DNA of 64,000 nt from Candidatus Uhrbacteria bacterium (GTDB taxonomy: Bacteria; Patescibacteriota; Patescibacteriia; JACQRZ01): positions 8,073 through 72,072 of the forward strand of contig JACQSC010000010.1 of assembly GCA_016206155.1 (NCBI GenBank). The letters run 5' to 3'. Below the pieces are notes generated by a model, which had not been told where the DNA came from, ran no database searches, and saw only the letters and a program-made list of their open reading frames with translations. The translations under genes and the position numbers were made by a program. Position 1 is the stretch's first letter. Each line of letters starts with the position of its first letter. Below are positions 17,225-57,695 of the stretch, one piece after another.

Positions 17225-17262
17225 ACACTTGAATCAGGAATTATGAATCAGGAATCATGGGG
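17225..17262 (-). repeat. Heptamer leader (ATTCCTG/ATTCATA units) 5' of the M16 peptidase start
   Basis: Top gaatcaggaattatgaatcaggaatcatgg. On the minus strand (ATTCCTG)(ATTCATA)(ATTCCTG)(ATTCAAG)TGT-ATG. Confidence 0.65.
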
Positions 17263-19784: not shown

Positions 19785-19832
19785 GGATATGCAGGGGTTA
19801 GGGTATAGGGTATAGGGTATAGGATAGAGCAC
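19785..19832 (-). repeat. Telomere-like heptamer array; coding-strand (CCCTATA)x3-CCCTAACCCC directly 5' of the pilT ATG
   Basis: Top gggttagggtatagggtatagggtatagga. Four or more GGG tracts on the template strand. Confidence 0.7.
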
Positions 19833-29898: not shown

Positions 29899-29937
29899 AA
29901 CAATTTCAACTTTCAACTTTCAGATTAAAGTATAGCA
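29899..29937 (-). promoter_or_regulatory. pilM promoter (TGcTATACT) and heptamer leader (GAAAGTT)x2-GAAATTG
   Basis: Top caatttcaactttcaactttcagattaaagtatagca. No SD. Confidence 0.6.
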
Positions 29938-32427: not shown

Positions 32428-32504
32428 ATAGTATATAATACTGTTAAAGATTTCACTATACCCTAACCACTATAACCTATACCCTGTCTCGTATGCCCCG
32501 CACT

Positions 32505-32638
32505 TAACTCCGATTGCTGCTATTAATCATCCGTCCTATGATATACACTACACACCGTTTATTCATCATCACCTCGATTTCCTCTGCTGTCGTGTCGCAG
32601 CATGAGGATGATCGGAGTTAAGTGCGGGGTATGGAATC
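32505..32638 (+). promoter_or_regulatory. 19-bp perfect inverted repeat (ccccgcacttaactccgat / atcggagttaagtgcgggg) spanning the clp 5' region
   Basis: The arms are 96 nt apart and the right arm ends 1 nt before the ATG of MESFLKRC. An upstream CCCTAACC/CCTATACCCT motif lies at 32470-32495. Confidence 0.5.
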
Positions 32639-34943: not shown

Positions 34944-35559
34944 CGAGAGCTTCCTGGCGCAAGTTGCTCCTGCCGTTGACACCGACGAAGAACAACAAGC
35001 GCAGGAGCGTGGTGGAGGTGAACAGCACGGCGCTCTTGTTCGCGCAATCTTCGCGCAACGGCTCGGGCAAAACAAGCGCGAGGAACAAAAACTGACCAAG
35101 GAGCTCGAACACTGGAAAGAGGAACTCGCGGCACAAGAACGAAAAAAAGGAACGTGTATGATACTCCTCATTGTTGCTATGGGCGATGATGTTATAGACG
35201 TTCTCGGCGCTCTTGTCAGCTTTGGCCTCTTAAGCTCAGTCACCTTTCCAATACCAGGCATTATCCGCATGATGGTTGCAATCCATGAACGGGAGCCGCG
35301 TCCAGATCGTCTTTTACGTACAGTCGCCGCAATGGCAATTGAAGCGATACCATTGCTCAATCTTCTTCCAACGACAACGATCAATCTGATCATTGACCTT
35401 ATCGAGGCGTCCTGGGATGGGGATCAAGCGAAAAATAAAGTTGAAGATCTTGAGAAAAAAATAAAGACATTGAAGCAAACAACTGGTGCGCAGACCAGAA
35501 ACGCCATGCAAATCATGCGCGGGATGTCCCAATCTGCCATGTCCCGCCGCGCGGCATAG
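34927..35559 (+). CDS. Hypothetical membrane/coiled-coil protein
   Basis: Start reset to MPKGVDESF; the upstream part of the track ORF overlaps clp out of frame. One TM plus coiled coil. Confidence 0.4.
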   Translation: MPKGVDESFLAQVAPAVDTDEEQQAQERGGGEQHGALVRAIFAQRLGQNKREEQKLTKELEHWKEELAAQERKKGTCMILLIVAMGDDVIDVLGALVSFGLLSSVTFPIPGIIRMMVAIHEREPRPDRLLRTVAAMAIEAIPLLNLLPTTTINLIIDLIEASWDGDQAKNKVEDLEKKIKTLKQTTGAQTRNAMQIMRGMSQSAMSRRAA

Positions 35560-35612
35560 AAATGGTGTCTGGCTCAGTTTTGTGAAGCAAATCTGTGCCT
35601 GACACCATTTCA
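35560..35612. repeat. Palindromic element B copy (GAAATGGTGTCtgg...CCtGACACCATTTC); likely terminator
   Basis: gaaatggtgtc / gacaccatttc 11-bp arms with a 27-nt loop immediately after a stop codon. Confidence 0.6.
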
Positions 35613-35636
35613 TTCACTAACCAAGTGTGCTATACT
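35608..35636 (+). promoter_or_regulatory. Extended -10 promoter (TGcTATACT) for the TolB-like gene
   Basis: tttcat-17-tgctatact, followed by the (CCCCTAA)x5 leader. Confidence 0.5.
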
Positions 35637-35648
35637 GCCTTCTAGAGG

Positions 35649-35690
35649 CCTAACCCCTAACCCCTAACCCCTAACCCCTAACCCCTATTC
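35649..35690 (+). repeat. (CCCCTAA)x5 telomere-like heptamer array in the 5' leader
   Basis: taacccctaacccctaacccctaacccctaacccctattccc ends 8 nt before the ATG at 35699. Confidence 0.8.
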
Positions 35691-35698
35691 CCTGGAAC

Positions 35699-36913
35699 AT
35701 GAAACGAATTCTACTTATTATCGGCTTTGTCGCAATAGTTATTCTGCTCGTTGTGCTGATTTGGTACTTTTTCTTCCGCCCGCTCCCCCCTCGTGAGGAG
35801 GTCACACTGGAGGAACCTGTCACCAAGCTGCCAATCCCTGGAGAATATATTCCGCCCGAAGGTCCGGGTGTCTTGACATCACCCACAACCGCTGAGGAGC
35901 AATTACCCGAAACCGCCATGGAAGCGCAGGGAGGACCGGTGCAAACCGCTGAGCTGGACTCAGGCAACAATATCGGCTCCCGGATCGCACCCGATGGATC
36001 GAGTGTCGTAACCTTCGACTCGTACGCCGGAACGTTTTACCGCATCACACCTGACGGGATGGCTGAAAAACTAACCGATCAGACATTTGCGGGCGCAACG
36101 AACGTCACCTTGTCGCCAAACAACGAACGGGCGGTTATTGAATTTCTAGACGACTCAAAAATTCTCTATGATTTTAGCCGCAAACAGCAAGTCGCAACAC
36201 TTCCCAAGCATTGGGAAGCGTTCGATTTCTCTCCTGACGGCGGAAATATCGTTTTCAAAAGTATTGCCACAAACCCGGATAACAATTGGTTCGCCATCGC
36301 AAACGCCGACGGATCCGATGGTCAAGAGCTTGAACTCATGGGAAAGAAGATTAATCAGTTTACTCCACTCTGGTCCCCATCTGATCAAATTGTCGGCTTT
36401 TATGAGGAGGGCGTTGACGCGGATCGCAAACAGCTCTATTTCATCGGAAAGTACGGCGAGAATTTTCAGGCGATTACGGTCGAGGGAAGGGGCATCAAGG
36501 CACAGTGGTCTCCTTTGGGCACCCAGCTCTTGTATAGCGCGTACTCGGCGAAATCTGGCTTCCGACCCGAGGTATGGATTGTCGATGCGCTTGGCGACAC
36601 AATCGGCGAGAATCGCCGCAAGCTTGATATACAAACATGGGCTGATAAATGCGGCTTTGCCGGAAATGAGACACTCTACTGTTCGGTTCCAAAAATCATA
36701 CCTGAAGGCGGCGGGCTCCTGCCTGTCGTTGCCGAGGAAAAGAGCGGCGGCGAGGTGATTTATAAAATTGATCTGACAACAGGCGAAAGGCAAAAGGTCG
36801 CCGAACCGCGAAGCGATCTGATCGCGCAAAACCTCCAGGTATCTAAAGATCAAACATATCTTTTCTTCACGAACAAATACTCGGGGAAATTGTATAGTAT
36901 ACAATTGCAATAG
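35699..36913 (+). CDS. TolB-like periplasmic beta-propeller (PD40 repeat) protein
   Basis: N-terminal TM and repeated SPDG/FSPDG PD40-type blades. Confidence 0.6.
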   Translation: MKRILLIIGFVAIVILLVVLIWYFFFRPLPPREEVTLEEPVTKLPIPGEYIPPEGPGVLTSPTTAEEQLPETAMEAQGGPVQTAELDSGNNIGSRIAPDGSSVVTFDSYAGTFYRITPDGMAEKLTDQTFAGATNVTLSPNNERAVIEFLDDSKILYDFSRKQQVATLPKHWEAFDFSPDGGNIVFKSIATNPDNNWFAIANADGSDGQELELMGKKINQFTPLWSPSDQIVGFYEEGVDADRKQLYFIGKYGENFQAITVEGRGIKAQWSPLGTQLLYSAYSAKSGFRPEVWIVDALGDTIGENRRKLDIQTWADKCGFAGNETLYCSVPKIIPEGGGLLPVVAEEKSGGEVIYKIDLTTGERQKVAEPRSDLIAQNLQVSKDQTYLFFTNKYSGKLYSIQLQ

Positions 36914-36992
36914 TACCTCCTTGACTGATACGTCTGTCATCCCGCCGGTGAAGCATGCCACGGACACCGATCCGGGGAACTGGATCCAGCCT

Positions 36993-38216
36993 ATGCGTGA
37001 TAAAACTTTCTTTTACTGGGTTTTGGCTTTCGCGGGAATGACAATGCTTCTTGTGTTTTTAGTTTCGCCGAACATGGTAGCCGCCGCCTCTGTCGGCTCC
37101 CCAAGCGTGTCTGGGGGCAGCGGTGTTATTCCTGAATTTTTTTTTCAAATCCCAATCGGGGGGCTGCGGTCAGTGATTGTCTGTGAAACCGGAAGCGACG
37201 GTAAACTGGCATGTCCCGGCATTGCAAAGTATGTCCAAGTCGTCTATCGCTTCCTGGTTGGGTTTGCTGCCGTGCTTGCGGTCCTTGCGCTCACCTGGGG
37301 CGGCGTGCGTTGGCTCATGTCGGGAGGGGACAGTAGCGCCATCCAGGAAGCAAAAAAAATCATGGGCAATGCCCTTATCGGCCTCCTTCTTGCGCTGGGG
37401 TCGTACGCGCTGCTTTTTACGCTTGGCAAACAATTTGTTGAGTATAAACCGATTAGCATACGGCGTATACAACTCATAATTCTCAACATTACGCCGACAA
37501 CGATATCGGCTGGCGGAACAAGCGCCACATACGATGTCAACAGGTTTGCCGCGTATGGGTTCCCTCCCCCAAATACAGAGCCGGATAAAAGCGGGAAAAA
37601 AATGGAAGGAGAGGCTTTGCGACGGTGGAACAAGTACAAGGATTTGGCAATGAAGGCATCAGTGGCAACGAGGACCGATATAGGATTTATCGGCATGTGG
37701 CCATTACTCGAAAATAGTTTTGATACATTTATGGATAACTGCGCCGACACTGACCACAATCCCAACACTCCCTGTGCATCGTGGGGTAGCAATTGGCAGG
37801 TCGGACTTGGAATTCATCCTGGAAATATGCCGTGGGCGTATGAAGACGGAGTTAGTGCAATGTATGGCAATACAAATGATGCTACTGTCCAGAACATTGG
37901 CCAGAGTGTTCTTGATACCGCAAAAGCCGCGGGAAGGCCACTCACGCTCGTCAGCGATCCGTTCCCAACAATCTCACTCAATAGCACGATCGATGCGGCA
38001 AAAAACGGCGATCAAAACGCTCGGCTTCTTATTGCAACACTTTCAAAAGATCCTGCTCTTGGTCTTTATCTTGTTGGCGCCCACTTTGGCTCAAAAGACG
38101 TTGGCAAAGAGCCAAAGAGTGAAATGGCGACAAGAATGAACAATTGGCCGCCTGCGGGTGCGTATACCCCCCAACGGATCAGTAATCTCATCAAGTCGAT
38201 CTATGACGCGAAATAG
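36993..38216 (+). CDS. VirB2/TrbC-like pilin-domain protein with a ~250-aa C-terminal extension (paralog 1)
   Basis: IAKYVQVVYRFLVGFAAVLAVLALTWGGVRWLMSGGDSSAIQEAKKIMGNALIGLLLALGSYALLF two-helix pilin core. The start was reset to MRDKTFFYW; the upstream part of the track ORF is encoded by a degenerate element A copy. Confidence 0.6.
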   Translation: MRDKTFFYWVLAFAGMTMLLVFLVSPNMVAAASVGSPSVSGGSGVIPEFFFQIPIGGLRSVIVCETGSDGKLACPGIAKYVQVVYRFLVGFAAVLAVLALTWGGVRWLMSGGDSSAIQEAKKIMGNALIGLLLALGSYALLFTLGKQFVEYKPISIRRIQLIILNITPTTISAGGTSATYDVNRFAAYGFPPPNTEPDKSGKKMEGEALRRWNKYKDLAMKASVATRTDIGFIGMWPLLENSFDTFMDNCADTDHNPNTPCASWGSNWQVGLGIHPGNMPWAYEDGVSAMYGNTNDATVQNIGQSVLDTAKAAGRPLTLVSDPFPTISLNSTIDAAKNGDQNARLLIATLSKDPALGLYLVGAHFGSKDVGKEPKSEMATRMNNWPPAGAYTPQRISNLIKSIYDAK

Positions 38217-39150
38217 GAAAAGGGTTGTATTGGCCACGGTTGGAATACTCGGGACAATCATAACGGCATATATTGGCACGTCTGTATTTGCGGCAGGCGC
38301 CAGTTTTCCATTGCAAATCCCAATTTCCGGCGAGGGTTCTATTGAGGTATGTGTCGGCAAAAAATGCGCCGGCATCGCAAAATACATTACCCTCATCTAT
38401 CGCGTTCTTATCGGTTTTGCCGCCGTTCTCGCGGTCCTCGCCATGACCTGGGGCGGCGTGCAGTGGCTTATTTCCCGCGGCGAAAGTGGCAAAATACAAG
38501 AAGCGCGGAAAATAATTGGCAACGCCCTTGTTGGCCTCCTCATTGCCCTCCTCTCATACGCCGGCCTTTGGGCAATCAATCCGTCATTCGTCCAATTTGG
38601 CCCCCTCACCATCGCCGCTATCAATAAAATAGATCTGGATATTGAGGCGGACGTTTCGAGCCATGCCGCTCTCGCGGGGCGATTTGCGCTTGGGGCAGGT
38701 GTTTCTGTGTCCGGATTTACCAATGTTAAGTTCGATCCCGACACAAAAAAAGATGTAGAAACGTCGGGTGTCATTACGCAACTCCTAGCCGATCTTCTAA
38801 GTGACATTGATAAAGCTGGCTATGCAGTGACCTTTTCCGCGATTGTAAGCGGTCATGGTCCAGGCAACACCTTCCATAATCCGGCTGGACGCGCCGCCGA
38901 TATTACTGGCGACCGGGCAACGCTTACTCGTCTTGCCGACTATTTGGGAACACGGCCGAATGTCAATGAGCTCTTCTACGCGTATAACACGGATCGAACA
39001 TTTAATGACTGTAATAAACAAGGTTCGGACTGGCTTAAAAATACTACGTACAAAAGGAAAGACGGAACCATAACAAATCTCTACGAAGCGCACAAAGACC
39101 ACCTCCACGTTGCGGTTGGCTGCGGAAGCGGCGCATTTCCCAAAAAATGA
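38203..39150 (+). CDS. VirB2/TrbC-like pilin domain fused to an LAS-type (peptidase M15-like) peptidoglycan hydrolase domain (paralog 2)
   Basis: Pilin core IAKYITLIYRVLIGFAAVLAVLAMTWGGVQWL. The C-terminus has SGHGPGNTFHNPAGRAADI (H..D) and HKDHLHVAV (HxH) Zn-binding signatures. Confidence 0.6.
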   Translation: MTRNRKRVVLATVGILGTIITAYIGTSVFAAGASFPLQIPISGEGSIEVCVGKKCAGIAKYITLIYRVLIGFAAVLAVLAMTWGGVQWLISRGESGKIQEARKIIGNALVGLLIALLSYAGLWAINPSFVQFGPLTIAAINKIDLDIEADVSSHAALAGRFALGAGVSVSGFTNVKFDPDTKKDVETSGVITQLLADLLSDIDKAGYAVTFSAIVSGHGPGNTFHNPAGRAADITGDRATLTRLADYLGTRPNVNELFYAYNTDRTFNDCNKQGSDWLKNTTYKRKDGTITNLYEAHKDHLHVAVGCGSGAFPKK

Positions 39151-39263
39151 AAAACGTATCCAGCCCAATTAAGGATTCTTGCGACGGAACAAAAAGCTTT
39201 GTGCCGTAGTAAAAAAATAGCATGGCAGCGCATGGGCGAGCCGGTGGTTTGGGTTTTAACACT

Positions 39264-39698
39264 ATGAAGAAAGCTCTCTTGTTCGTTTTTGCTCTCTCTC
39301 TATTTATCGCTACAACGTTCCTGTCTCCCGCTTCTGCAGGTGATGTTTCAGTTCAGCTTGAGATCCCTATTCCCGATATCGGTCAGTCACTTCCCGTCTG
39401 CACGACGAGGGAAACGAATCGTGCATGCGCCGGCATTGAGGAATACTTGTCCGCTATCTATCGCTGGCTTATTGGAATCACGGCAGTTCTTGCGGTGGTC
39501 GCGCTCACTTGGGGCGGAGTTCGCTGGTTGACATCGTCAGGAGACAAGGGTGTAATTCAAGATGCAAAAAAAGTCATAATCAATGCCGTTATCGGTATTC
39601 TTGTCGCGCTTAGCTCCTACTCACTTCTATGGGCAATTAACCCCAATCTCGCGCAGTTTGAGCCACTGAGAATAACACAATACGACCAAAAGCGCTGA
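39264..39698 (+). CDS. VirB2/TrbC-like pilin (short paralog 3)
   Basis: Signal peptide MKKALLFVFALSLFIA and the core IEEYLSAIYRWLIGITAVLAVVALTWGGVRWLTSSGDKGVIQDAKKVIINAVIGILVALSSYSLLW. Confidence 0.6.
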   Translation: MKKALLFVFALSLFIATTFLSPASAGDVSVQLEIPIPDIGQSLPVCTTRETNRACAGIEEYLSAIYRWLIGITAVLAVVALTWGGVRWLTSSGDKGVIQDAKKVIINAVIGILVALSSYSLLWAINPNLAQFEPLRITQYDQKR

Positions 39699-39701
39699 TT
39701 T

Positions 39702-39790
39702 CAGAAATGGTGCAGAAATGGCAGAAATGGTGTCACAGAAATGGGAAATGGTGGTAATGGGAAATGGTGGGAAATGGTGTCAGGTCTGGT
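39702..39790. repeat. Tandem cluster of element-B half-sites (CAGAAATGG / GGAAATGGTG repeats)
   Basis: cagaaatggtgcagaaatggcagaaatggtgtcacagaaatgggaaatggtggtaatgggaaatggtgggaaatggtgtcagg. Confidence 0.7.
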
Positions 39791-41918: not shown

Positions 41919-43343
41919 ATGGCTCTTTCTGTCTATATCTGCTCGAATTGCGATGCGCAAAGCCCGAAATGGGCAGGGCGGTGCTTGGAGTGCGGATCGT
42001 GGGGAACGCTTGCGCAAGGAATCGCAGATGAAAAAACCAGCGGAAAAAAATCAACCGCAGGCATAGCGCCAGCAGACGCAATTCCCTTCTCGCAGATTTC
42101 AAACGAACATGTCCCGCGCCGCTCCACCGGCATTGCCGAAGTTGATCAAGTTTTGGGTGGCGGTATCGTTCCGGGAAGTTTGATTTTACTTGGCGGAGAG
42201 CCGGGGATTGGGAAGAGTACGATTTTAGGACAGCTTGCGTGCTCAATTTCACAACAAAAAAACTCCGTCATCTATTGCTCTGGGGAGGAGTCGGCCCAGC
42301 AAGTCAAAATGCGGTTTGACAGGATCAAAGCACTGGATCCCGGCCTGCGCCGGGATGACAAAGGGAGCGGGGCTGACACCCTCCTCTTCATCGGTGAAAC
42401 CAACTGCGAAAAAATCTGCGGTGCGCTTCGTCATCATAAACCGACGCTCGCAATCGTTGACTCCATACAAACTATCGCCTCTTCCGATATTCCTTCAGAA
42501 GCGGGAAGTATCGCGCAAGTACGCGCATGCACAGTCAAACTCCTTGAAGTCGCAAAGCAGGAAAACATCCCAATCATTATTACCGGCCATGTCACAAAAG
42601 AAGGCGGTGTTGCCGGTCCCAAAACTCTTGAACATCTTGTTGACACAGTCCTCTATCTTGAGGGGGATGCAAGCCAGTATTTTCGCCTATTGAAAACAGT
42701 AAAAAATCGCTTTGGCTCGACAAATGAGATTGGCGTCTTTGAAATGACTGGCGCAGGGTTAGTTGAAGTAAAAAATCCGTCAGAGCTTTTTCTCTCGTCA
42801 GAAAACGAACACGCGGCAGGCACTGCAACGACTGCGGTTGTAGAAGGATCGCGCGCGTTTCTCGTTCCCATTCAGGCGCTGACGAGCAAGACATATTTCG
42901 GCTACCCCCAACGAAAAAGCATCGGCATAGACGCCAATCGCCTCGGACTTCTTGTCGCGGTGCTTTCAAAACGTCTTGGGGTTAATCTTGGCGATCAGGA
43001 TATTCATGTCAACGTTGTCGGAGGCCTCAGAATATCCGAGCCTGCCGCAGACCTCGCGGTATGCGCAAGTATTCTCTCCTCGTACAAAGGGAAAATGGTG
43101 TCAGGTACCATTTTTGAAGAAATGGAACCAGACACCATTTTACCAGACACCATTTTGCCGACTATTTTCTTTGGCGAGGTTGGCCTCACAGGAGAAGTGC
43201 GTCCCGTAAGTCACACTGAGAAGCGACTCAAGGAAGCGGAGAAGCTCGGCTTCAAGACTGCGTATATTCCGAAGCAGTCAAAAAAAATCTCAACAAGCAT
43301 TCAGCTTGTTGAGATTAAAAACGTCCGCGAGTTGGAAATTTAA
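41919..43343 (+). CDS. radA: DNA repair protein RadA/Sms (carries two in-frame palindromic-element insertions)
   Basis: CxxC zinc ribbon, GEPGIGKST Walker A, KNRFG motif, Lon-like C-terminal domain. Extra segments ALDPGLRRDDKGSG and KMVSGTIFEEMEPDTILPDTILP. Confidence 0.9.
   Translation: MALSVYICSNCDAQSPKWAGRCLECGSWGTLAQGIADEKTSGKKSTAGIAPADAIPFSQISNEHVPRRSTGIAEVDQVLGGGIVPGSLILLGGEPGIGKSTILGQLACSISQQKNSVIYCSGEESAQQVKMRFDRIKALDPGLRRDDKGSGADTLLFIGETNCEKICGALRHHKPTLAIVDSIQTIASSDIPSEAGSIAQVRACTVKLLEVAKQENIPIIITGHVTKEGGVAGPKTLEHLVDTVLYLEGDASQYFRLLKTVKNRFGSTNEIGVFEMTGAGLVEVKNPSELFLSSENEHAAGTATTAVVEGSRAFLVPIQALTSKTYFGYPQRKSIGIDANRLGLLVAVLSKRLGVNLGDQDIHVNVVGGLRISEPAADLAVCASILSSYKGKMVSGTIFEEMEPDTILPDTILPTIFFGEVGLTGEVRPVSHTEKRLKEAEKLGFKTAYIPKQSKKISTSIQLVEIKNVRELEI
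42335..42366. repeat. Element A mini-hairpin inside radA (GGATCCCGGCC-tgc-GCCGGGATGACAAAG), in frame, encoding DPGLRRDDK
   Basis: 11-bp inverted repeat with a 3-nt loop inside the coding sequence. The same peptide and sequence recur in the 911-aa gene at about 58771-58812. Confidence 0.75.
43092..43160. repeat. Element B inside radA, in frame (aaatggtgtcaggtaccattt...ccagacaccatttt x2)
   Basis: Encodes KMVSGTIFEEMEPDTILPDTILP; contains the GAAATGGTGTC/GACACCATTT palindrome. Confidence 0.75.
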
Positions 43344-43363: not shown

Positions 43364-45505
43364 TTACTTCCTCAACAGCCCGCCCCACTCAACAAGCGTA
43401 AAGCCATTGCGAGGGATGCTGCTGAGAGCCTGAGGCCGCATCACAACGGGCTTATCAAGCCCATCGAAGTCCAAGAATATGCGAATCACTGTGTCTGGCT
43501 TTGGCGTTACGGAAAGCGGCGCAAGCGCGTTCATCTCGCGCGTGCCAAGCCAACTCAAGCGCGTGTACGGTGTCGTTGGCATCTTTGACAGCCAGAATTC
43601 CAAGAAATCGGCAGCTTCTTTTTCATTAAGCCCAAGCTGTGCAAGGTGTTCTCGCAACGTGCCTTCAAGCTGATCTTTTGCAACGACGAATCCTCGTGTG
43701 ATGGTCGGATACTGCTTTCCGGTCCCCTCCCAGAACAGCGATGAGTATGTCCCGCTCGCATGCTGCAACGTTCCATCGGGATACGCGCGAACCTGCCAGC
43801 CATTTCCGTACGCCGGCTCAGAGATGCGGATCTCCGCATCAACCGCCACCGATACATCTGTTGGCGTTGTCGGATAGAGGTAGATGACGGGCTTGCCGCA
43901 TTCGACGGCAGGACCGTACGTTGTGTTATTGTATACGACATAGCGATTGAGCGCGTCTTTCACCATAATCACGGGCCGCTTTGCCAGAAACTGTTCATAG
44001 CTTAACTTCTTGCTTTCCCCGTCTGCATAATATGCGCCGCCCGACATCTCGTACAGCGCCCGCTCAACGGAATTGGCTCCTGCCTTAAACGCGTATACGG
44101 TTTTGTTCCCTGCTCCGGTGCCAATCTTAGTGATGTTAGAAATCGAAGCATCACCAAGCACTGGCGTGAACGATCCGCCACCACACCCACCGGTTGCAAG
44201 TTCCTCATACCCGTCGGTATTTTTTATGCCATTATTCCACTTAATGCTGGGAACGCCATCATCACCCCCGAGCTCATTCTTGGTATAATCGTAAGAATAT
44301 TCAATGCCATTGGGCGCCTTTAAGACAAACGTCTGCACGCGCAATGGTTCGATTGATCCTGGCCCATCAACGGAATACAGCGTGCCGTTTGCCGTACTTG
44401 CAACCTGCGTACGCGTTGTCTTAAATTCAGGTTCTGCGTAGCGAGAATCGCCGCGGTTCAATGTAACTCCTTTATACGCAATCGTATCAGGCGCTTTAAT
44501 GGATGGATAGAAGGTCGTGGTGTTAATCCTCACGTTCCGGTCAACGACACCGCCAAACACCTTTCCGGTATCCTTATCATACACCTCGGAGTTGCGGGCA
44601 ATAAATTCATAGTTCCCGCCTGCATCCAAAAAGTACGCGTGGTAATCCTCGAACGAAGGTCCGTCCGGAGGAATCGCTGCAAGCAAAACATCGCGTCCGT
44701 TATCGCTGCCTGTTTTGTAATAGGTGACCTCCTCCCCGTTTGTTTGCAGGAAGAGGTGTGGCGGATTAGATAGTTTTTGTGGCGTGGAAAGCCATGTTAC
44801 TCCTGACTCCGGCGTTTGTGGAGCAGAAAATATTTGACCAGATGTTGAAAAATAGGGCGCATATGCTTGCGGGATGTTGCTGATATCTCGATTGGTAATG
44901 CCAAGCCCGAGTTCGCGCATGATGTTAAACGCATCCGACGGTCGGCCGAGAAAATAGCGCCTGCTATCTACTGGATTGACATACCATGCCTCACCGTTTC
45001 GTTGAGTCTGAAGCAAAATTTTCCCATGAAGGCGCCGAGTAAGGCTCGTATCTATTGGTAAAGCTCCCGATCCAAGCGGATCAAGATTTTCTTGAAGCTC
45101 AACGTCATCGCGATATCCGTCATAATCCGTGTCAGCGGCCTGTGGATTCATGCCAAGAGTTTCCTCCAGATTGTTTGGAACACCATCCATGTCAGAATCA
45201 TTAAAACGACCGCCACCCATGGTATCGCGTGCGACGCCAACAGGAATTTTGCGCAAATCCGAATTTGAAATGCCAAGACCCAAGCTGTTCATGAGCTCAA
45301 ACGCGTCAGATGGCCGACCCATATATATGCGGCTTCCGGTGTCGGGCCTGATATACCACGCTTCGCCAAGACTCTCAACCTGAAGAACGATTCTTCCCTT
45401 GAGACGATCGGTCAATGTCGCGGCACTTGCCGACAACACAAACGCGCCAAGAACAACCGCTCCGAGGGTTATCAGTCCCGTTCCTAACAAAAGACGATTT
45501 TTCAT
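43364..45505 (-). CDS. Secreted protein with 2 copies of a novel ~55-aa repeat, TSP3-like Asp-rich Ca-binding repeats and a large C-terminal domain of unknown function
   Basis: Signal peptide. Repeats LKGRIVLQVESLGEAWYIRPDTGSRIYMGRPSDAFELMNSLGLGISNSDLRKIP and LHGKILLQTQRNGEAWYVNPVDSRRYFLGRPSDAFNIMRELGLGITNRDISNIP. DSDMDGVPN...DTDYDGYRDD. Confidence 0.7.
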   Translation of the reverse strand: MKNRLLLGTGLITLGAVVLGAFVLSASAATLTDRLKGRIVLQVESLGEAWYIRPDTGSRIYMGRPSDAFELMNSLGLGISNSDLRKIPVGVARDTMGGGRFNDSDMDGVPNNLEETLGMNPQAADTDYDGYRDDVELQENLDPLGSGALPIDTSLTRRLHGKILLQTQRNGEAWYVNPVDSRRYFLGRPSDAFNIMRELGLGITNRDISNIPQAYAPYFSTSGQIFSAPQTPESGVTWLSTPQKLSNPPHLFLQTNGEEVTYYKTGSDNGRDVLLAAIPPDGPSFEDYHAYFLDAGGNYEFIARNSEVYDKDTGKVFGGVVDRNVRINTTTFYPSIKAPDTIAYKGVTLNRGDSRYAEPEFKTTRTQVASTANGTLYSVDGPGSIEPLRVQTFVLKAPNGIEYSYDYTKNELGGDDGVPSIKWNNGIKNTDGYEELATGGCGGGSFTPVLGDASISNITKIGTGAGNKTVYAFKAGANSVERALYEMSGGAYYADGESKKLSYEQFLAKRPVIMVKDALNRYVVYNNTTYGPAVECGKPVIYLYPTTPTDVSVAVDAEIRISEPAYGNGWQVRAYPDGTLQHASGTYSSLFWEGTGKQYPTITRGFVVAKDQLEGTLREHLAQLGLNEKEAADFLEFWLSKMPTTPYTRLSWLGTREMNALAPLSVTPKPDTVIRIFLDFDGLDKPVVMRPQALSSIPRNGFTLVEWGGLLRK

Positions 45506-45565
45506 AATTCTTAATTCTTAATTCTTAATTCTTAATTCTTAATTCTTAATTCTATTAGTATAGCA
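45506..45565 (-). promoter_or_regulatory. Promoter (TGcTATACT) and (AGAATTA)x7 heptamer leader ending at the ATG
   Basis: Top ttcttaattcttaattcttaattcttaattcttaattcttaattctattagtatagca. No SD. Confidence 0.7.
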
Positions 45566-49297: not shown

Positions 49298-51421
49298 CTA
49301 CTCGATATGCACGGTATCCTGGAATGTGGCGATTCGGTTTTTAAGTTCCGGGTGATCATTGAGCTTGGAATGATATGCCGCTGCATATTCTCGCGCTTTT
49401 ATAATCAACTCGATATCGGTAAGCGTCGCGATTTTCAAGCGCGGCATTCCTGATTGGCGCAGTCCCAAGATATCACCTTCTCCGCGCAATGCTAAATCTT
49501 TCTCTGCCAGCGCAAAGCCGTCATGTGACGATACAACGGCTTTGAGACGGCTGATTTCTTCTTTGTCCTCGTCGGTTGGTGCAAGAAAGCAGTACGACTG
49601 ATGGTCTGCCCGCCCGACTCGCCCGCGCAATTGATGCAAGCTCGCAAGCCCGAACCGCTCCGCGCCCTCGATGAAGACGATCGTCGCATTTGGCACATCG
49701 ATGCCAACCTCGACAACTGACGTTGTAACTAATATATCAATCTCATGGTCTCGAAATGCGGCCATCACCCGTTCTTTCTCCGCGGTTTTTATTCGGCCAT
49801 GGAGCATTTCGACTCTTTCGTGTCGAAACGGTCCATCGATTAATTTTTTATACTCTTCCTTTACCGACCGCACACCCAATATATCAGATTGATCAATGAT
49901 CGGACAGACAATAAATGCCTGGCGCCCTCGCCTCACGTGTTTTCGGATAAAATCGTATGTCCACGCGCGATAGGACTGCGGCACAATTTTTGTGATAATT
50001 TTTTTTCGCCCCTTTGGCAATGCGCGAATCGTGGAAATATCAAGGTCACCATACACCGTGAGCGCCAAGCTCCTCGGAATTGGCGTTGCCGTCATTGACA
50101 GGACGTGCGCAGTGATTGGCGCACTGTTTTTTTCTCTCAAGGCTTTCCGTTGATTGACGCCAAAGCGATGCTGCTCGTCTACAATCACAAACGCGAGGTT
50201 CTTGAATGAAATTTTTTCTTGAATCAACGCATGTGTCCCGATAACGATATCAACACCTCCATTTGCTATCGTATCTCGTAACTCGTAATCCTTGATTCTT
50301 AATTCTTGATTCTTAATTCTTAATTCGTGATGCTGTGCTGTGAAAAGCGCAATGCGAACATCAAAATCCGCAAACACCTTTTTTAATGTAGTGAAATGCT
50401 GCCGTGCAAGCACCTCCGTCGGCGCCATGAACGCGCACTGGTATCCTGCGTGCACAACGTTAAGCATTGCGAGGATAGCAACGATTGTCTTACCGGATCC
50501 GACATCACCCTGAAGAAGGCGATTCATTGGCGTCGCTTTCTGGATATCACAGAGAATCTCCCATGCAACGGTCTTCTGCTCTTTTGTCAACGTAAACGGA
50601 AGCGCCGCAATGAGCCGCTTCGTTATTTTTTGATCAAACGGTATGGCACATGAAGTCTGGGCGGCTAGCGATTCCTTGAGATTCTTGCAATAAAGTTGAA
50701 GTAAAAAAAGCTCCTCAAACTTAAAGCGCTGTTCGGCGATACAATATTCCTCCTGTTTTTCCGGAAAATGAATTGATAAAAGAGCGGTCGAAAGATCGGG
50801 ATATCGCTCGTGCGCGCGGATATCATCTGGAAGCCACTCTTTGACAAAGGGAAGACATCGATCAAGCGCCGTACGCATGAGGAGGCGAAATTGCTTTTGC
50901 GCAACGTTTGCGGGAAACGAATAGACGGGCACGAGCCGCGCCGTGTGAAGCGATGGAAATACGGTGTCAGGTATCCTGACCCCGTTTTCTGCGCCTGACC
51001 CCGTTTTCTCATATACGGGACTCACCATCTGGAGATCATAATAATGATCGCTCGTTTTTCCCGAAAGACTCAACCAGTCCCCGACTTGCAGGTTTTTTGT
51101 AAGAAAAGGTTGATTGAACCATACGATCTTGATGCTCCCGCTTGCGTCCGAAACCAATGCTTCGGTGACGATCATCCGCGAACGTCGAGAGCGGCGATTG
51201 GCGATCATATCGATCCGCCCCCGAATTGTTGCTGTTATCTGGGTGCGCAGGTCTGCGATTGGAAGCACGAGGGAAAAATCGTCAAATCGTCGCGGAAAAT
51301 AAAAAATGAGATCCTCGCAGGTCTCAATACCAAGTGGCTTTAGTTTTTTTTCCAATGCCTTTCCTGTTCGGCCTAAGCTCGCGAGAGGTTGCGCAAGAGG
51401 ATTCATAAGTTGATTCACCAT
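49298..51421 (-). CDS. recG: ATP-dependent DNA helicase RecG (carries in-frame repeat insertions)
   Basis: Wedge domain, GDVGSGKT Walker A, DEQHRFG and the TRG-like C-terminus. Insertions HELRIKNQELRIKDYELRD and KTGSGAENGVRIPDTV. Confidence 0.9.
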   Translation of the reverse strand: MVNQLMNPLAQPLASLGRTGKALEKKLKPLGIETCEDLIFYFPRRFDDFSLVLPIADLRTQITATIRGRIDMIANRRSRRSRMIVTEALVSDASGSIKIVWFNQPFLTKNLQVGDWLSLSGKTSDHYYDLQMVSPVYEKTGSGAENGVRIPDTVFPSLHTARLVPVYSFPANVAQKQFRLLMRTALDRCLPFVKEWLPDDIRAHERYPDLSTALLSIHFPEKQEEYCIAEQRFKFEELFLLQLYCKNLKESLAAQTSCAIPFDQKITKRLIAALPFTLTKEQKTVAWEILCDIQKATPMNRLLQGDVGSGKTIVAILAMLNVVHAGYQCAFMAPTEVLARQHFTTLKKVFADFDVRIALFTAQHHELRIKNQELRIKDYELRDTIANGGVDIVIGTHALIQEKISFKNLAFVIVDEQHRFGVNQRKALREKNSAPITAHVLSMTATPIPRSLALTVYGDLDISTIRALPKGRKKIITKIVPQSYRAWTYDFIRKHVRRGRQAFIVCPIIDQSDILGVRSVKEEYKKLIDGPFRHERVEMLHGRIKTAEKERVMAAFRDHEIDILVTTSVVEVGIDVPNATIVFIEGAERFGLASLHQLRGRVGRADHQSYCFLAPTDEDKEEISRLKAVVSSHDGFALAEKDLALRGEGDILGLRQSGMPRLKIATLTDIELIIKAREYAAAYHSKLNDHPELKNRIATFQDTVHIE
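50281..50330. repeat. Heptamer array (cgtaatc/cttgatt/cttaatt units) inside recG, in frame, encoding ELRIKNQELRIKDYELRD
   Basis: Top actcgtaatccttgattcttaattcttgattcttaattcttaattcgtga. Confidence 0.75.
50961..51012. repeat. Element C (CCTGACCCCGTTTTCT x2 with a GGTGTCAGG palindrome arm) inside recG, in frame
   Basis: ggtgtcaggtatcctgaccccgttttctgcgcctgaccccgttttctc encodes KTGSGAENGVRIPDTV. Confidence 0.7.
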
Positions 51422-53360: not shown

Positions 53361-53975
53361 TCACTGCCAGTAGGCGCTGTCCACCACCCACGCCCCATCA
53401 TCTTTCACAAGCTTTACAACCACGTCTTGATTGTATATGCGCGCGTTGACCGTGCTGCCAATAAGCTCCTTGCGCTGCGTTGCGACAAGAATCTCAGCGC
53501 GTCCCTGCTCGGGCTTATAATCCTTCATGGTGTACGAGAGCGCCTTGGTCGTCACACCGCGATACAACTCCTGAAAGGGTTTGTTTACTTGTTCAGCTAT
53601 TTGCTTTTGCGCCCAGTTTCTCATGGACGAGCCCATAAACGGCAACAAGTCTGAGAGATTTTCAAAATTTCCTTGGTTTGAGTAGCTCCCAAATCGCTCG
53701 ACAAACGGCAGCGCCAGAGAGACGATCTCCTCGCCCGGTTCTGCCGGAGGTGGCGATGAGAGGGGCGCTTGCACAGCACCCTTTCCGACGGATGAAGATG
53801 GCGATGCCTGCCCGGAGCTATTCGATCCTTGATTTCCCTGTTCCTCAACCTGCGTGACAAGTGGTTGCTCTTTTTTTGCGCGGACATATCGCACAACAGC
53901 AATTGCCGAGAATAGAATCATGAGTCCCACCACGGAGAGAATCGCGATCAGAACAATTTTTACGCGTAATGTCAT
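53361..53975 (-). CDS. Membrane-anchored hypothetical protein (NTF2-like C-terminal domain, possibly VirB8-like)
   Basis: N-terminal TM, Ser/Pro-rich linker, C-terminal ...ILVATQRKELIGSTVNARIYNQDVVVKLVKDDGAWVVDSAYW. Confidence 0.45.
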   Translation of the reverse strand: MTLRVKIVLIAILSVVGLMILFSAIAVVRYVRAKKEQPLVTQVEEQGNQGSNSSGQASPSSSVGKGAVQAPLSSPPPAEPGEEIVSLALPFVERFGSYSNQGNFENLSDLLPFMGSSMRNWAQKQIAEQVNKPFQELYRGVTTKALSYTMKDYKPEQGRAEILVATQRKELIGSTVNARIYNQDVVVKLVKDDGAWVVDSAYWQ

Positions 53976-54012
53976 GGATTAGGGCTTAGGGTTTAGGGTT
54001 TAGGGTTTAGGA
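53976..54012 (-). repeat. Telomere-like heptamer array; coding strand (CCTAAAC)x3-CCCTAAGCCCTAATCC directly 5' of the ATG
   Basis: Top gattagggcttagggtttagggtttagggtttagg (a TTTAGGG-type repeat on the template strand). Confidence 0.75.
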
Positions 54013-54021
54013 ATATCCTAG

Positions 54022-55896
54022 CTAGGCTTGGTGTTTCTTTTCAAGCTCGAACTCTTTCTTCGCCGCTTCGATCTCAAGTAATTGGCGCGGATCGGTCGTA
54101 ATCAGCTGATCCTCCGAGTAGGACGCAATCACTTTAATCGCAACGTGTTTGGTTCCCGCGAAAAAAATGCCCTCTCCCGGACCTCCTTCTAATAATAGAT
54201 ACTTCTCACCCTCTGTCAACAAGAATGTCTTCTGTACAACATCGATGGCCGCGGGCGATTGCTTGAGCAGGAGCTGAAGAGCGGAGTTCGTGAGAATCGC
54301 GCGTCCATATTCCGATGTCAAAAAGTCGTTCACGTCCTGCGTGATGGTGGATACCCCGAGATAGTACTTGCGGGCGCGCTTGACCAGCGCGAAGATAAAG
54401 CGCGCGGAGTCCTCGTGCTGCATCAGCCACCATGCCTCATCAATGACCAATATGCGACGCTTCACCTCCGAACGCACGACATTCCAGATGTAATTGACGA
54501 CCGTATAAATCGCAATGGGTCGAAGCTCGTCCTCAAGATCACGCACCGAAAAAACAACCAATTGATTTCGCGTCTCCACGTTTGTCTGATGGTTGAGGAG
54601 CCCTGCAAACGTCCCTTCGGTGTATTTCCGCAGTTTATTCGAAAGCCCTGCTCCTCCTTCCATACCCTCGAGAATATCCTGGAGGTCGGAAAGCGTCGGG
54701 GGCTGGATGCCTGCGGAGAGGTCGGCTTGCGGAGTAATATCTCGCTTGGCATATGCCTCAAGCAAGGCGCGATCCATGATGGAATCCTCCTCTTGCGTAA
54801 ACTCTCCAAGCATCAGGCGCGTGAGCCCTTTGAGCGTAATAACAGCGCTGCGAATAATATCGGCAACCGACGCTTGTTCCCCTACTGCCCGCGGCAGATC
54901 AAAGGGATTGATGCGGCTGGTTGAGGAAAGTGAGATGTTAATATAGGTGCCACCGACGGCATCGGAAAGGTGCTTGTACTCCCGCTCCGGATCAATAACC
55001 AGCACATCAGTCCCCATCATCATGGAGCGTAGAATTTCTAACTTAACGGCGAACGACTTACCGGCGCCGCTCGTTGCGAACACGGTGAGGTTCGCATTCT
55101 GGAGGCTGAACCGATCAAAGAGAATCAAGCTGTTGTTATGCCGATTAATCCCGTAGAGAATCCCATTGTCAGATGTGAGATCAGATGAGATAAATGGAAA
55201 GGCCGCCGCGGCCGGCGAGGTGTTCATGTTAAATGGAATAGCAAGCTCATCGTTGCAAAGCGGCAGGGTTGAATTGTATCCCTGCTCCGCTTGATACAGC
55301 ACGCGTTTGGTAAAAATCAGCTTCGATCCATAGAGTGATTCGATGTCCTCCGTCATCTTGTCGAGTTGCTCAAGCGTATCGGCATAGAGTGTTGTGTAAA
55401 CACCGATGGAAAAAAAGTGCTCAATGCCTTGCGTCAGGTCATCGCGCAATTGCTCCATATCGCGCAGCGCCGTCTCCGCTTGCGGATCGCGGGGCTTGCC
55501 GCGCTCCTGCCCGGAAGAAATCTCCGCCTCAACGCGCCCCACTTTATCGCGCAATTGTTTTAAAACAATGGGCGTCGGCAAAGGTGCAAAAAAGAGCCCG
55601 ACATCAAAAGACGCAGCATAGTTGATAATCGGAGAAAACCATCCGACATTGATATATCGCGGATAGCCGACGACAAAAAGCGTTCTGCAATACTTCGACC
55701 CAACACGGACATAGTTGGGCTGCACCTCAAACGCGGACGGGGCAATCAGATCCTTGACCGCGACCAAACCGCGCCGATACGCTAATTCCTCTTCAAGAAC
55801 GGCTTTTTGCGCCGCTTCTTTCTGCGCAGTTGGTGTGATGGGCTTTTTTTCGTGCTCCTCCTTTTTAGCTTTAATGGGTTTAAATGGCATAAACAT
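54022..55896 (-). CDS. VirB4/TrbE-like type IV secretion ATPase
   Basis: FATSGAGKSF Walker A, ILVIDEAWWL Walker B, VirB4 C-terminal domain architecture. Confidence 0.85.
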   Translation of the reverse strand: MFMPFKPIKAKKEEHEKKPITPTAQKEAAQKAVLEEELAYRRGLVAVKDLIAPSAFEVQPNYVRVGSKYCRTLFVVGYPRYINVGWFSPIINYAASFDVGLFFAPLPTPIVLKQLRDKVGRVEAEISSGQERGKPRDPQAETALRDMEQLRDDLTQGIEHFFSIGVYTTLYADTLEQLDKMTEDIESLYGSKLIFTKRVLYQAEQGYNSTLPLCNDELAIPFNMNTSPAAAAFPFISSDLTSDNGILYGINRHNNSLILFDRFSLQNANLTVFATSGAGKSFAVKLEILRSMMMGTDVLVIDPEREYKHLSDAVGGTYINISLSSTSRINPFDLPRAVGEQASVADIIRSAVITLKGLTRLMLGEFTQEEDSIMDRALLEAYAKRDITPQADLSAGIQPPTLSDLQDILEGMEGGAGLSNKLRKYTEGTFAGLLNHQTNVETRNQLVVFSVRDLEDELRPIAIYTVVNYIWNVVRSEVKRRILVIDEAWWLMQHEDSARFIFALVKRARKYYLGVSTITQDVNDFLTSEYGRAILTNSALQLLLKQSPAAIDVVQKTFLLTEGEKYLLLEGGPGEGIFFAGTKHVAIKVIASYSEDQLITTDPRQLLEIEAAKKEFELEKKHQA

Positions 55897-55903
55897 GATG
55901 TCA

Positions 55904-56061
55904 TTCGTAACTCGTAATCCGTAATCCGTAATTATTTTTGATTTTCGATTGAACTAATAAGCCCGTTAATAAGCTGCATAACCTCTTTTGATTATTCTCC
56001 AAGTTCTTTGCACTGTTCCTTGTACAAGTTACGAGTTACGGATTACGGATTACGAGTTACG
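55904..56061. repeat. Inverted pair of heptamer arrays (CGTAACT/CGTAATC units, ~28 bp each) flanking a 93-bp spacer
   Basis: Left cgtaactcgtaatccgtaatccgtaatt (55904-55935). Right ttacgagttacggattacggattacgagttacg (56029-56061). 27 of 28 positions are complementary. The left array is the VirB4 leader; the right array encodes the C-terminus and stop of the upstream gene. Confidence 0.75.
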
Positions 56062-56768
56062 TTCTCTTCGTTTTCCACCTGCAGCTTGCCAACCTCCGCC
56101 ATCCGCTGATTGGCTGCCGTCAGTGGGTTATAGGTGGTGTAGAGCAGTTCAATAAGGCTCTGCGTGTCAAGACGCGCGGCGTTCAGCGACATGCTCAAGA
56201 GCCCGGATATGACAGCATCAACGCGCTGATCCAGAATATGTTTTCGCTTTAAAAATGCTTCACGGCGCAGGGTGATCTCTCCAACGGCAGTAAACACGTT
56301 TGTCAGTTGACGGAAAAACCCGCGACGCGTATCGGTCGTCGGGTCATACGGTATGACGACATAAAACTTCTTATCCATAATATCGCCCAGTTGCACAAGC
56401 TCGCCGACGAATTGGCGGTAGTCCGCCATCTGCATCTTGAGCAGATCGTTCGTTTGCTGCGCCTCAAGCTCCTGCAAATGCGCAAGGTAGTGCGAGATAT
56501 CGTACTTGCGCGATTGAATGACGATCTGAAGCGGGTAGTCAATGGAGTTGAGAAACTGCTGATACGTCTGGATCGTCGCGTTCTGCTCGTCCTCCGACTT
56601 GAGAAAAAAGTTGACCGAGGATACGAGCAACGCTGCGCGCAACGTCCCGTCCTTCATAACGATCGTGTCATTTTTAATCTCCGCAACCTGAAGGTGCTTC
56701 TGCGTCGAGGCCGTTCCCTTCCCTGCTTTTGGGTTTGGTTCGGAGGTTTGTTTTTTCTTTTTTCCCAC
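56043..56768 (-). CDS. Hypothetical protein, possibly a stand-alone VirB4 N-terminal-domain-like component; the C-terminus ...ENVTRNP is encoded by heptamer repeats
   Basis: GTG start. Weak resemblance to the VirB4/TraC N-domain (LRAALLVSSVNFFLKSEDEQ...LQIVIQSRKYD). Position between the VirB3-like and VirB4 genes. Confidence 0.45.
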   Translation of the reverse strand: MGKKKKQTSEPNPKAGKGTASTQKHLQVAEIKNDTIVMKDGTLRAALLVSSVNFFLKSEDEQNATIQTYQQFLNSIDYPLQIVIQSRKYDISHYLAHLQELEAQQTNDLLKMQMADYRQFVGELVQLGDIMDKKFYVVIPYDPTTDTRRGFFRQLTNVFTAVGEITLRREAFLKRKHILDQRVDAVISGLLSMSLNAARLDTQSLIELLYTTYNPLTAANQRMAEVGKLQVENEENVTRNP

Positions 56769-56770
56769 AG

Positions 56771-56797
56771 ATTACGAGTTACGAGTTACGAGTTACG
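56771..56797. repeat. Heptamer array (TTACGAG)x3 that overlaps the stop of the 56779 gene and forms the leader of the 56043 gene
   Basis: attacgagttacgagttacgagttacg. On the minus strand it reads ...GAC GTA ACT CGT AAC TCG TAA (DVTRNS-stop). Confidence 0.75.
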
Positions 56798-57222: not shown

Positions 57223-57225
57223 TGC

Positions 57226-57264
57226 GAGAATTAAGAATGACGAATTAAGAATTACGAATGATTG
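57226..57264. repeat. Heptamer array (AGAATTA/CGAATTA-type) that forms the leader of the 56779 gene and encodes the IRNS-stop tail of the 57245 gene
   Basis: gagaattaagaatgacgaattaagaattacgaatgattg. On the minus strand it reads ATT CGT AAT TCT TAA. Confidence 0.7.
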
Positions 57265-57640: not shown

Positions 57641-57672
57641 AATTCTTAATTCTTCATTGCAGACAGTATACC
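57641..57672 (-). promoter_or_regulatory. Promoter (gGTATACT) and AGAATTA heptamer leader of the four-helix-bundle gene
   Basis: Minus strand TATACTGTCTGCAATGAAGAATTAAGAATT-ATG. Confidence 0.6.
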
Positions 57673-57695
57673 ATTATTCTGAAGGCATCACAACG

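Follow-up and report, generated by a model that had tools for sequence, protein, structure and literature searches.

Tandem arrays of heptanucleotide units located next to start codons have already been published for several bacteria, and we use these systems as the reference for a set of arrays found in a 64,000-nt stretch of a Candidatus Uhrbacteria genome (contig JACQSC010000010.1 of assembly GCA_016206155.1, positions 8,073 to 72,072 of the forward strand; hereafter the window, numbered from its first nucleotide). Three of these arrays, at 19793, 35649 and 53976, resemble telomeric repeats and are capable of forming G-quadruplexes (G4). A sequence-only reading of the window had noted their position just upstream of start codons and proposed that G4 formation on the template strand could modulate transcription, or that a specific factor may bind the sites. 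We find the G4-capable template strands before the starts but favour, at somewhat better than even odds, a plainer explanation, namely that nothing sets the telomere-like arrays apart from the other heptanucleotide simple-sequence repeats of this genome, which make up unstructured leaders, and that their G4 capability is incidental.

The most similar repeats are the GGGNATC and GGGGAYT heptamers of Xanthomonas and Nostoc, for which G4 folding in vitro and a prevalence of arrays with four units have been described (Rehm et al. 2015, PMC4692102). Like the telomere-like arrays, they combine a 7-nt unit containing a tract of three or four G with about four or more units, they are intergenic and located preferentially less than 50 bp upstream of an open reading frame (ORF) with the G-rich strand antisense, their copy number and sequence vary among close relatives, and they precede genes of all functional classes. 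They differ in that one dominant unit occupies many sites, whereas no single genome-enriched unit family of the type described by Rehm et al. was found in the window, where three arrays have three different units in 64 kb and stand among many arrays that are not G-rich; moreover, the host here belongs to the Patescibacteria phylum and the G4 capability is read from sequence alone. In marine Beggiatoaceae, TAACTGA direct repeats are found a few nucleotides before starts that have no recognisable ribosome-binding site, including those of ribosomal-protein genes, and no RNA structure is predicted for them (MacGregor 2015, PMC4679880). The arrays of the window share these properties, but the Beggiatoaceae repeat is a single conserved unit, which suggested a specific binding protein, while the units described here differ by gene and by ortholog.

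A heptamer with variable copy number also occupies the 5' untranslated region (UTR) of Haemophilus influenzae hmw1A/hmw2A, where the (ATCTTTC)n repeat of hmw1A pairs with a G-rich partner into an RNase III hairpin and expression has been tied experimentally to copy number (PMC12721329). The solitary arrays of the window have no such partner and their leader is predicted to be unpaired; two inverted array pairs, 55906/56036 and 57227/57626, come closer to the hmw1A design. The long simple sequence repeats of Mrazek (2007) and the heptamers of cyanobacteria, both as cited in PMC4692102 and PMC4679880, are similar in their period-7 excess, intergenic location and several unit families per genome. 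The arrays of the window are tightly start-proximal and occur in a genome that apparently makes no use of Shine-Dalgarno (SD) pairing. In both respects they are unlike the long simple sequence repeats and the cyanobacterial heptamers, known as STRR. Among the literature searched, we found no reports of heptamer repeats for Saccharibacteria, the Candidate Phyla Radiation or Parcubacteria. The present arrays stand apart by their many different units, by the phylum of their host and by an SD-less setting.

The first telomere-like array had been described as five copies of CCCCTAA, and Tandem Repeats Finder (TRF) indeed reports an exact period-7 array at 35649-35687 on the plus strand, with 5.6 copies of CCTAACC (equivalent to the CCCCTAA register) at 100% match. 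It ends 11 nt 5' of the ATG at 35699, or 5 nt when one degenerate copy that extends the leader array to 35693 is counted, and its complement, (TTAGGGG)n, gives the top G4Hunter region of the window (35645-35699), with a score of -2.56. The two further heptamer arrays, placed by the same reading at 53976 and 19785-19832, are both recovered by TRF and both G4-capable. One of them, at 53976-54014, reads on the minus strand as cctaaaccctaaaccctaaaccctaagccctaatcc, or (CCCTAAA)x3-CCCTAAG-CCCTAAT, directly adjoins the ATG at 53975 and fills the 46-nt spacer between the C-terminal VirB4 gene and a 204-aa gene. The other, at 19793-19829, reads on the minus strand as cctataccctataccctataccctaacccct, or (CCCTATA)x3-CCCTAACCCC, and lies 8 nt 5' of the ATG (19784) of a PilT-family gene. 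In both cases the G4 motif is on the plus strand, which is the template strand of the adjacent gene.

A search of both strands of the window with the regular expression (G3+N1-7)x4, with the expectation taken from window-matched first-order Markov random sequences, gave three G4 motifs where 0.55 are expected. They are located at 19794-19817, 35668-35692 and 53982-54005, that is, the three telomere-like arrays are the sole canonical G4 motifs of the window, and they fall at about +5 to +50 of the predicted transcripts. G4Hunter regions scoring at least 1.5 number 11 compared to 6.7 expected. The window-wide scan for strand and position bias thus finds the G-rich strand to be the template strand of the adjacent gene in three of three arrays, with the ATG 0-11 nt away, but with n=3 this polarity is not significant (two-sided p ~0.25, our own arithmetic).

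The template-strand arrangement had been claimed for every case, including related motifs at 2699-2710 and 32470-32495. It holds for the three arrays, and the additional motifs are neither arrays nor G4 motifs. At 2699-2710 the leader of rpmA contains just one aaaccctaaact, and 32455-32495 is a degenerate stretch without G4 capability, situated 28-70 nt upstream of the minus-strand ATG at 32427 and more than 125 nt upstream of a plus-strand start, before a likely -10 element at 32539-32547 (identified by eye). For the closer of the two genes, the minus-strand gene starting at 32427, the G-rich strand of this stretch is the sense strand. The generalization to every case therefore fails.

The resemblance to telomeres is also narrower than first suggested. 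Telomeric units are TTGGGG in Tetrahymena, TTTAGGG in plants and TTAGGG in vertebrates. The array at 53976 alone matches a canonical unit, the TTTAGGG that had been noted, and the unit at 35649, which has the same G4 potential, is TTAGGG with one additional G rather than the Tetrahymena type. The three arrays are internal, 37-48 nt long and have genes on either side; they are neither replicon ends nor long arrays. Unlike telomeres, they consist of 4-6 copies beside promoters and starts, and their flanks recur in independent assemblies. An assembly chimera or eukaryotic contamination is ruled out because both array flanks recur in independent samples.

The three arrays belong to a much larger class. 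Exact period-7 repeats of at least two copies occur 13 times in the window compared to 1.07 expected, and degenerate period-7 arrays of at least three copies occur 14 times compared to 0.1 expected, while the counts for periods 5 and 8-11 match the baseline and that for period 6 exceeds it only slightly (6 compared to 1.6). Non-coding DNA, which makes up 10.4% of the window, holds 11 of the 14 arrays (p=4e-9), and 10 of the 14 fall in the 45-nt intervals that precede starts, which together account for 3.4% of the window (p=2e-12). On the sense strand of the adjacent gene, the arrays have the units AACTAYA, TGATTCM, CCCTATA, GTTGAAA, CCCCTAA, AATTAAG, CCCTAAA, ATTACGG, CGTAACT and ATTCKTA. Most of them are not G-rich, and AATTAAG, CGTAAYY, TGATTCM, GTTGAAA and AACTAYA cannot form G4 and yet occupy the same leader position. 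One such array, (AATTAAG)x7.6 at 45500-45555 on the minus strand, begins right after a -10 element TGCTATACT (45557-45565) and runs into the ATG at 45505; the product of this gene was not found on record. Other minus-strand leader arrays are AACTACA/AACTATA at 1100-1133, adjoining the ATG of a likely murD (judged from the translated N-terminus), (TGATTCM)x4 at 17230-17259 before the ATG at 17224 of an M16-type peptidase, (GTTGAAA)x3 at 29901-29926 after a -10 element at 29929-29937, (CGTAACT)x3.7 at 56770-56799 before the start of the N-terminal VirB4 gene, and ATTACGG/GTTACGA at 55905-55934 before the ATG of the C-terminal VirB4 gene. The last of these forms a perfect 26-bp inverted pair, in which it is the 3' arm, with a CGTAAYY array at 56027-56061 on the same strand as the 5' arm.

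The orientation of the units relative to the genes is not fixed: CGTAAYY is found at 56770 and 56027 and its complement at 55905, and AATTAAG is found at 45500 and 57633 and its complement at 57223. The mRNA strand has more C than G in 8 of the 13 array leaders of the window. The arrays therefore have in common their period of 7, their A/T-richness or G-poverty and their proximity to starts, not G-tracts or a specific sequence. A C-rich motif, ACCCTAACCCCT, considered as an alternative ribosome-binding or factor site, was ruled out because it has few matches beyond the arrays, and the four occurrences of CCCTAACCCC in the Patescibacteria relatives that were fetched (loci L009, L031, L056 and L073) are about what chance would give by our own estimate. 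Stop codons in all three frames, an idea that came from the fact that 7 mod 3 is 1 and a unit containing TAA thus stops every frame, were likewise rejected as the function of the arrays, with 31 of 64 in the sense and 36 of 64 in the antisense direction.

The arrays that do occur in coding DNA are in frame. Those inside RecG (50267-50331, minus strand; HELRIKNQELRIKDYELRD) and one inside a 911-aa low-complexity protein (58685-58705, minus strand; NQELRIKNQ) are inserts with a period of 21 nt or 7 amino acids, and RecG has CAA at the position where perfect repetition would give a TAA codon. The RecG linker contains similar array-derived peptides (ESGIRNQ, FIIRNS) in orthologs from other lineages, among them L009 and L014.

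The arrays appear to be transcribed as leaders. Extended -10 elements of the form TGnTATAnT (TGNTATANT) have 24 matches in the window compared to 3.8 expected, and those at 35628, 45557, 29929 and 57665 are each 2-13 nt upstream of an array. At these four sites the arrays thus constitute almost the entire 5' UTR and would be transcribed within it. The element of the 35649 array is TGCTATACT at 35628-35636 on the plus strand, 12 nt 5' of the array; it was not called by a sigma-70 consensus scan because that scan demands a -35 element. Rfam and tRNA scans of the window returned five tRNAs only and no match at the arrays. In the minus-strand gene starting at 32427, a TATACT precedes the first ATG by 2 nt; translation may instead start at the second ATG, in which case the gene would be leaderless.

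For the analysis of translation starts we used 39 curated starts of the window and the region from -40 to +20. SD-like tetramers (GGAG, GAGG or AGGA) are found at 3 of the 39 starts compared to 10.8% of random windows, and the G content of leaders is 16% compared to 26% overall, which shows a genome with, as far as motif counts can tell, no SD use. This agrees with a survey in which the anti-SD motif was detected in just 48% of Parcubacteria and was missing in a subgroup (PMC9297842). The 13 array-bearing starts show almost no predicted structure, with a mean minimum free energy (MFE) of -3.06 kcal/mol. The mean is lower both for the 26 other starts (-8.37, p=1.8e-4) and for random windows (-11.65, p=3.6e-7). 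In the RNA fold of 35643-35730 the whole array is predicted to be unpaired.

Comparison with relatives indicates that the arrays are not stable over evolutionary time. In 80 related Patescibacteria loci (1.28 Mb; numbered with the prefix L) there are 155 exact period-7 repeats of at least two copies, the top value among periods 4-12, followed by 122 for period 6. Their density is patchy: the closest relatives lack them altogether, and other loci reach 14 per 10 kb. The 80 loci and the window together contain 169 period-7 arrays, 64 of which adjoin a start according to automated and crude start calls. At the orthologous VirB4 start, different units (among them AATTAGN, ATTCGCA, AATTCCT and TTTGTAG) are present in L014, L021, L058, L062 and L068, and the closest relatives and other lineages have none. 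The L085 ortholog of the 404-aa gene that follows the 35649 array (66% identity) retains the promoter TGTGCTATACT, and its leader, aacccctagaatctaactcctccccct, holds a single seed copy (aacccctag; AACCCCTAG) and no array, which suggests that the 35649 array is of recent origin. The L009 junction orthologous to 53976 has one taccctaacccct only. The units are thus not conserved and the arrays come and go, which is not what one would expect if a factor recognised a particular sequence or if a G4 element were under conservation. A lineage-wide strand rule was considered and rejected as well, since among the 64 start-assigned arrays in relatives the sense strand has more G than C in 30 and more C than G in 25; the sense composition of these arrays is A 0.41, T 0.36, C 0.13 and G 0.10.

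Variation is also seen between samples. The 35649 array, with 5.6 copies in the window, has two copies in a contig of SRR12113422 that spans both flanks and at least four in the remaining samples. Five independent samples have the same 53976 array and three have the same 19793 array, so that no copy-number alleles of these two were found among the samples compared. Slippage-prone repeats would be expected to behave in this way, with variation in the longest uninterrupted array, stability of the imperfect ones and replacement of all of them from one species to another. Same-species contigs in the Logan collection break at the 35649 array: L002-L004 start inside it, L001 starts 12 nt upstream of it, and L004 begins with a Nextera adapter remnant, TAAGAGACAG. 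Repeats of this kind therefore fragment assemblies made with k=31 and are under-represented there.

The mechanism that we consider somewhat more likely than not starts with a single-copy seed in the leader, from which replication slippage would generate an array in place. Arrays would then grow and shrink on a time scale of strains to species, and their persistence would be almost confined to the short interval, a few tens of nucleotides, that separates the extended -10 element, or an upstream stop codon, from the start codon. They would be kept out of coding sequence since a unit of 7 nt is not divisible into codons and shifts the reading frame; the exceptions would be in-frame, 21-nt-periodic insertions in tolerant loops. 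In a genome without SD pairing, G-poor and non-self-complementary direct repeats may be tolerated or mildly favoured by providing a nearly structure-free initiation region, and changes in copy number, which shift the length of the leader, may tune expression. A template strand with four or more G-tracts arises because some units (CCCCTAA, CCCTAAA, CCCTATA) are C-rich on the mRNA strand. Both the telomere likeness and the G4 capability are thus most likely by-products of C-rich units and not selected properties.

Several points weigh against this explanation. The low structure of the array leaders is mostly a matter of composition (z=+0.69 relative to mononucleotide shuffles), and it could follow from where repeats are tolerated instead of reflecting selection for a function. 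Among three to five samples, the two shorter telomere-like arrays do not vary, which leaves rapid switching unsupported there. The step that would account for a unit of 7 leans on a published hypothesis (Mrazek 2007, in the form in which it is quoted by others), and the uniform polarity of the three G-rich arrays is explained only through a general avoidance of G in leaders.

The alternatives, in order of weight, are neutral mutational debris, copy-number tuning, which does not exclude the explanation given above, a link to cassettes encoding S23p/four-helix-bundle proteins, and regulation by G4 on the template strand. If a lineage-specific slippage bias toward 7 nt produced arrays that simply persist where they are harmless, without benefit, one would expect what is in fact seen in the patchy distribution among relatives, the unconstrained unit sequence, the mainly compositional structure effect and the similar numbers of three-frame stops in the two directions. 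Such neutrality has more difficulty with the observation that 10 of the 11 non-coding arrays are in the start-proximal third of non-coding DNA (p ~1e-4, our own binomial calculation), with leaders that are significantly less structured than other leaders of the same genome, and with the fact that the same junctions gain arrays independently in different lineages; we regard it as improbable, although it is the strongest of the alternatives. By analogy with hmw1A (PMC12721329), the arrays might instead be contingency or tuning loci in which copy number sets the expression of surface, pilus or secretion genes and variation of length within populations would be what selection maintains. An array between promoter and ATG is suitably placed for this, the two-copy allele of one sample compared to at least 4-5.6 copies elsewhere would be an example of the variation, and many array genes are related to the envelope, pilus or type IV secretion system (T4SS), including PilT, VirB4 and the genes with hydrophobic N-termini at 35699, 45505 and 53975. 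Yet the constancy of the 53976 and 19793 arrays among samples speaks against it, housekeeping genes (rpmA, murD, the M16 peptidase) have such repeats too, RecG contains them in frame, and the solitary arrays have no complementary partner for an hmw-type hairpin. We therefore see tuning as their main role as rather unlikely.

We give still less weight to the proposal that a template-strand G4, or an i-motif on the non-template strand, modulates initiation or early elongation or recruits a G4-binding protein. The excess of G4 motifs, all on the template strand, the G4Hunter extreme at 35645-35699 and the same positional pattern published for heptamers that do form G4 in vitro (PMC4692102) all point in this direction. 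On the other hand, G4 capability is limited to 3 arrays among about 20, the others hold the same positions, orthologous leaders do without the arrays, the strand bias at n=3 is not significant, and a search of related loci (1.35 Mb) found no further array-type G4 motif next to a start; there, a candidate for a sense-strand G-rich leader array (L046, 7557-7584) turned out to lie inside an ORF. A regulatory role was not identified by Rehm et al. themselves (PMC4692102). A local effect of a template-strand G4 on transcription of the three genes would nevertheless be conceivable.

The link to S23p cassettes arises from the operon that contains the VirB4 genes. A gene for an S23p/four-helix-bundle protein at 57245-57640 on the minus strand (TIGR02436, E 3.4e-36; PDB 2GSC, XCC0516, E 3.7e-21) is absent from this junction in the syntenic relatives compared, and other lineages have homologous cassettes elsewhere in this operon, between different pairs of genes. 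The cassette is bracketed on the minus strand by two arrays. The GAATTAA array at 57626-57658 in its 5' flank follows the -10 element at 57665-57673 and overlaps its start codon, and the ATTCKTA/ATTCTTA array at 57223-57262 in its 3' flank also serves as the leader of the gene at 56779-57222. The flanks share 28 nt that are 89% complementary and form a closing stem in both the MFE and the centroid folds. Among 12 Patescibacteria cassettes, eight have inverted heptamer-type flanks (exact over 12-29 nt) and three more do by eye. The cassette loci include the window (57223-57668, minus strand), L014 (9547-9918), L058 (3126-3473), L062 (3744-4133), L018 (813-1196) and L017 (7552-7845), with further S23p cassettes at L027, L068 and L006 and on plasmids at L104-L111.

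A second inverted pair in the same operon, 55906-55931 and 56036-56061 between the N- and C-terminal VirB4 genes, is a perfect 26 bp repeat with a predicted energy of -56.8 kcal/mol (z=-6). Its 104-nt spacer ends in QLINGLISSIENQK and a stop, resembles the 3' end of an S23p gene and is probably, to judge by this resemblance, the relic of an S23p/four-helix-bundle gene; at the same junction L014 has an intact S23p cassette. On plasmids, S23p homologs are found mainly in cyanobacteria, such as Nostoc and Calothrix, and in Riemerella. In seven of the eight plasmid loci inspected, strict period-7 arrays such as GGGTGTA (Calothrix) and AAGGTTC (Riemerella) occur within about 100 nt of the S23p gene, usually as inverted pairs, and in the eighth, from Azospirillum, GACAGAG and GACGGAT units form an inverted pair too degenerate to be called by the strict detector. 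The Coxiella 23S rRNA intervening sequence (IVS), which encodes S23p, has a 28-bp terminal stem that is cut by RNase III and two to three GACAGAT units before the ATG (PMC4990558). The window cassette is similar to the Coxiella and Leptospira IVS in the S23p ORF within terminal inverted repeats, the stem of about 28 bp and the tandem heptamers of variable copy number before the ATG (PMC4990558), and unlike them it is located between protein-coding genes of a T4SS-like operon and not in rRNA.

In relation to the telomere-like arrays, cassettes of this kind could make the arrays insertion targets, footprints or binding sites. The flanking of most of the 12 Patescibacteria cassettes by inverted arrays of cassette-specific sequence favours such a link, as do the same flanking in Calothrix, Nostoc, Riemerella, Stanieria and Azospirillum, the heptamers of the Coxiella IVS, and an array density elsewhere in the locus about four times higher in loci with a cassette (3.9 compared to 0.93 per 10 kb, p=4.8e-5), a correlation that is not corrected for phylogeny and ignores AT content. 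Against it, the array at 45500 and the three telomere-like ones have no cassette nearby and no inverted partner, none being found within 1.5 kb on either side of the three, and the seed copy in L085 indicates expansion in place. We therefore treat the S23p link, doubtful as an explanation of the telomere-like arrays, as a lead. A broader version, to which we also assign a low probability, would unite arrays and S23p genes into one widespread system, in which the cassettes are selfish or regulatory elements with an RNase III-type stem, the S23p protein or the spread of the element would generate or recognise arrays with a 7-nt period, and solitary arrays, STRRs and the Xanthomonas/Nostoc heptamers would be its targets or footprints.

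The genes next to the telomere-like arrays can be described briefly. The 35649 array precedes a 404-aa gene (35699-36913, plus strand) with a hydrophobic N-terminal segment and a weak match to TolB-like beta-propellers, which is followed on the same strand by genes at 36921-38216, 38158-39150 and 39222-39698, the last of these with a T4SS_pilin Pfam match in L001. The 204-aa gene after the TTTAGGG-type array (53361-53975, minus strand) is a syntenic member of a conserved type IV secretion-like cluster. The best relatives of the VirB4-like ATPase at 54022-55896 are 75-77% identical, come from metagenome-assembled genomes labelled Candidatus Uhrbacteria or Patescibacteria, and keep the gene order g60462, g57696, g56779, VirB4-N, VirB4-C, g53361, g52665, ... 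RecG, which places the host among Parcubacteria-type members of the Candidate Phyla Radiation. The window as a whole has a G+C content of about 50%, and 38 of its 49 long ORFs are on the minus strand. The ATPase is divided into two ORFs, a C-terminal one at 54022-55896 (~620 aa) and an N-terminal one at 56043-56768 (~230 aa), and this division is common to related Patescibacteria loci (L005-L084).

Upstream of the 35628 promoter there is a hairpin at 35559-35611 with 24-nt arms, GAAATGGTGTC...GACACCATTTC, which belongs to a family of repeated palindromic elements. The family is built on AAATGGTGTC / GACACCATTT and has 10 exact copies, or 14 with at most one mismatch compared to 4.5 expected. 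Its hairpins are in intergenic DNA at 35559-35611, 39725-39781, 43093-43155 and 58169-58234, and a copy at 58162-58199 is in frame within the 911-aa protein as PDTISEPDTISE.

What appears as a bacterial telomere or G4 signal is, in our interpretation, a subset of ordinary heptamer repeats, and this cautions against over-reading G4 motifs. The interest of the finding is mainly in the SD-less leader context and in the association with S23p. In Patescibacteria without SD pairing, whole 5' UTRs can be fast-evolving heptamer arrays, and such arrays are natural material for studying how the ribosomes of these organisms find start codons and whether repeat length tunes expression. If general, the bracketing of S23p genes by inverted arrays would join two long-unexplained features, the heptamer families and the function of S23p, and would open both the heptamer families and the S23p proteins to experiment.

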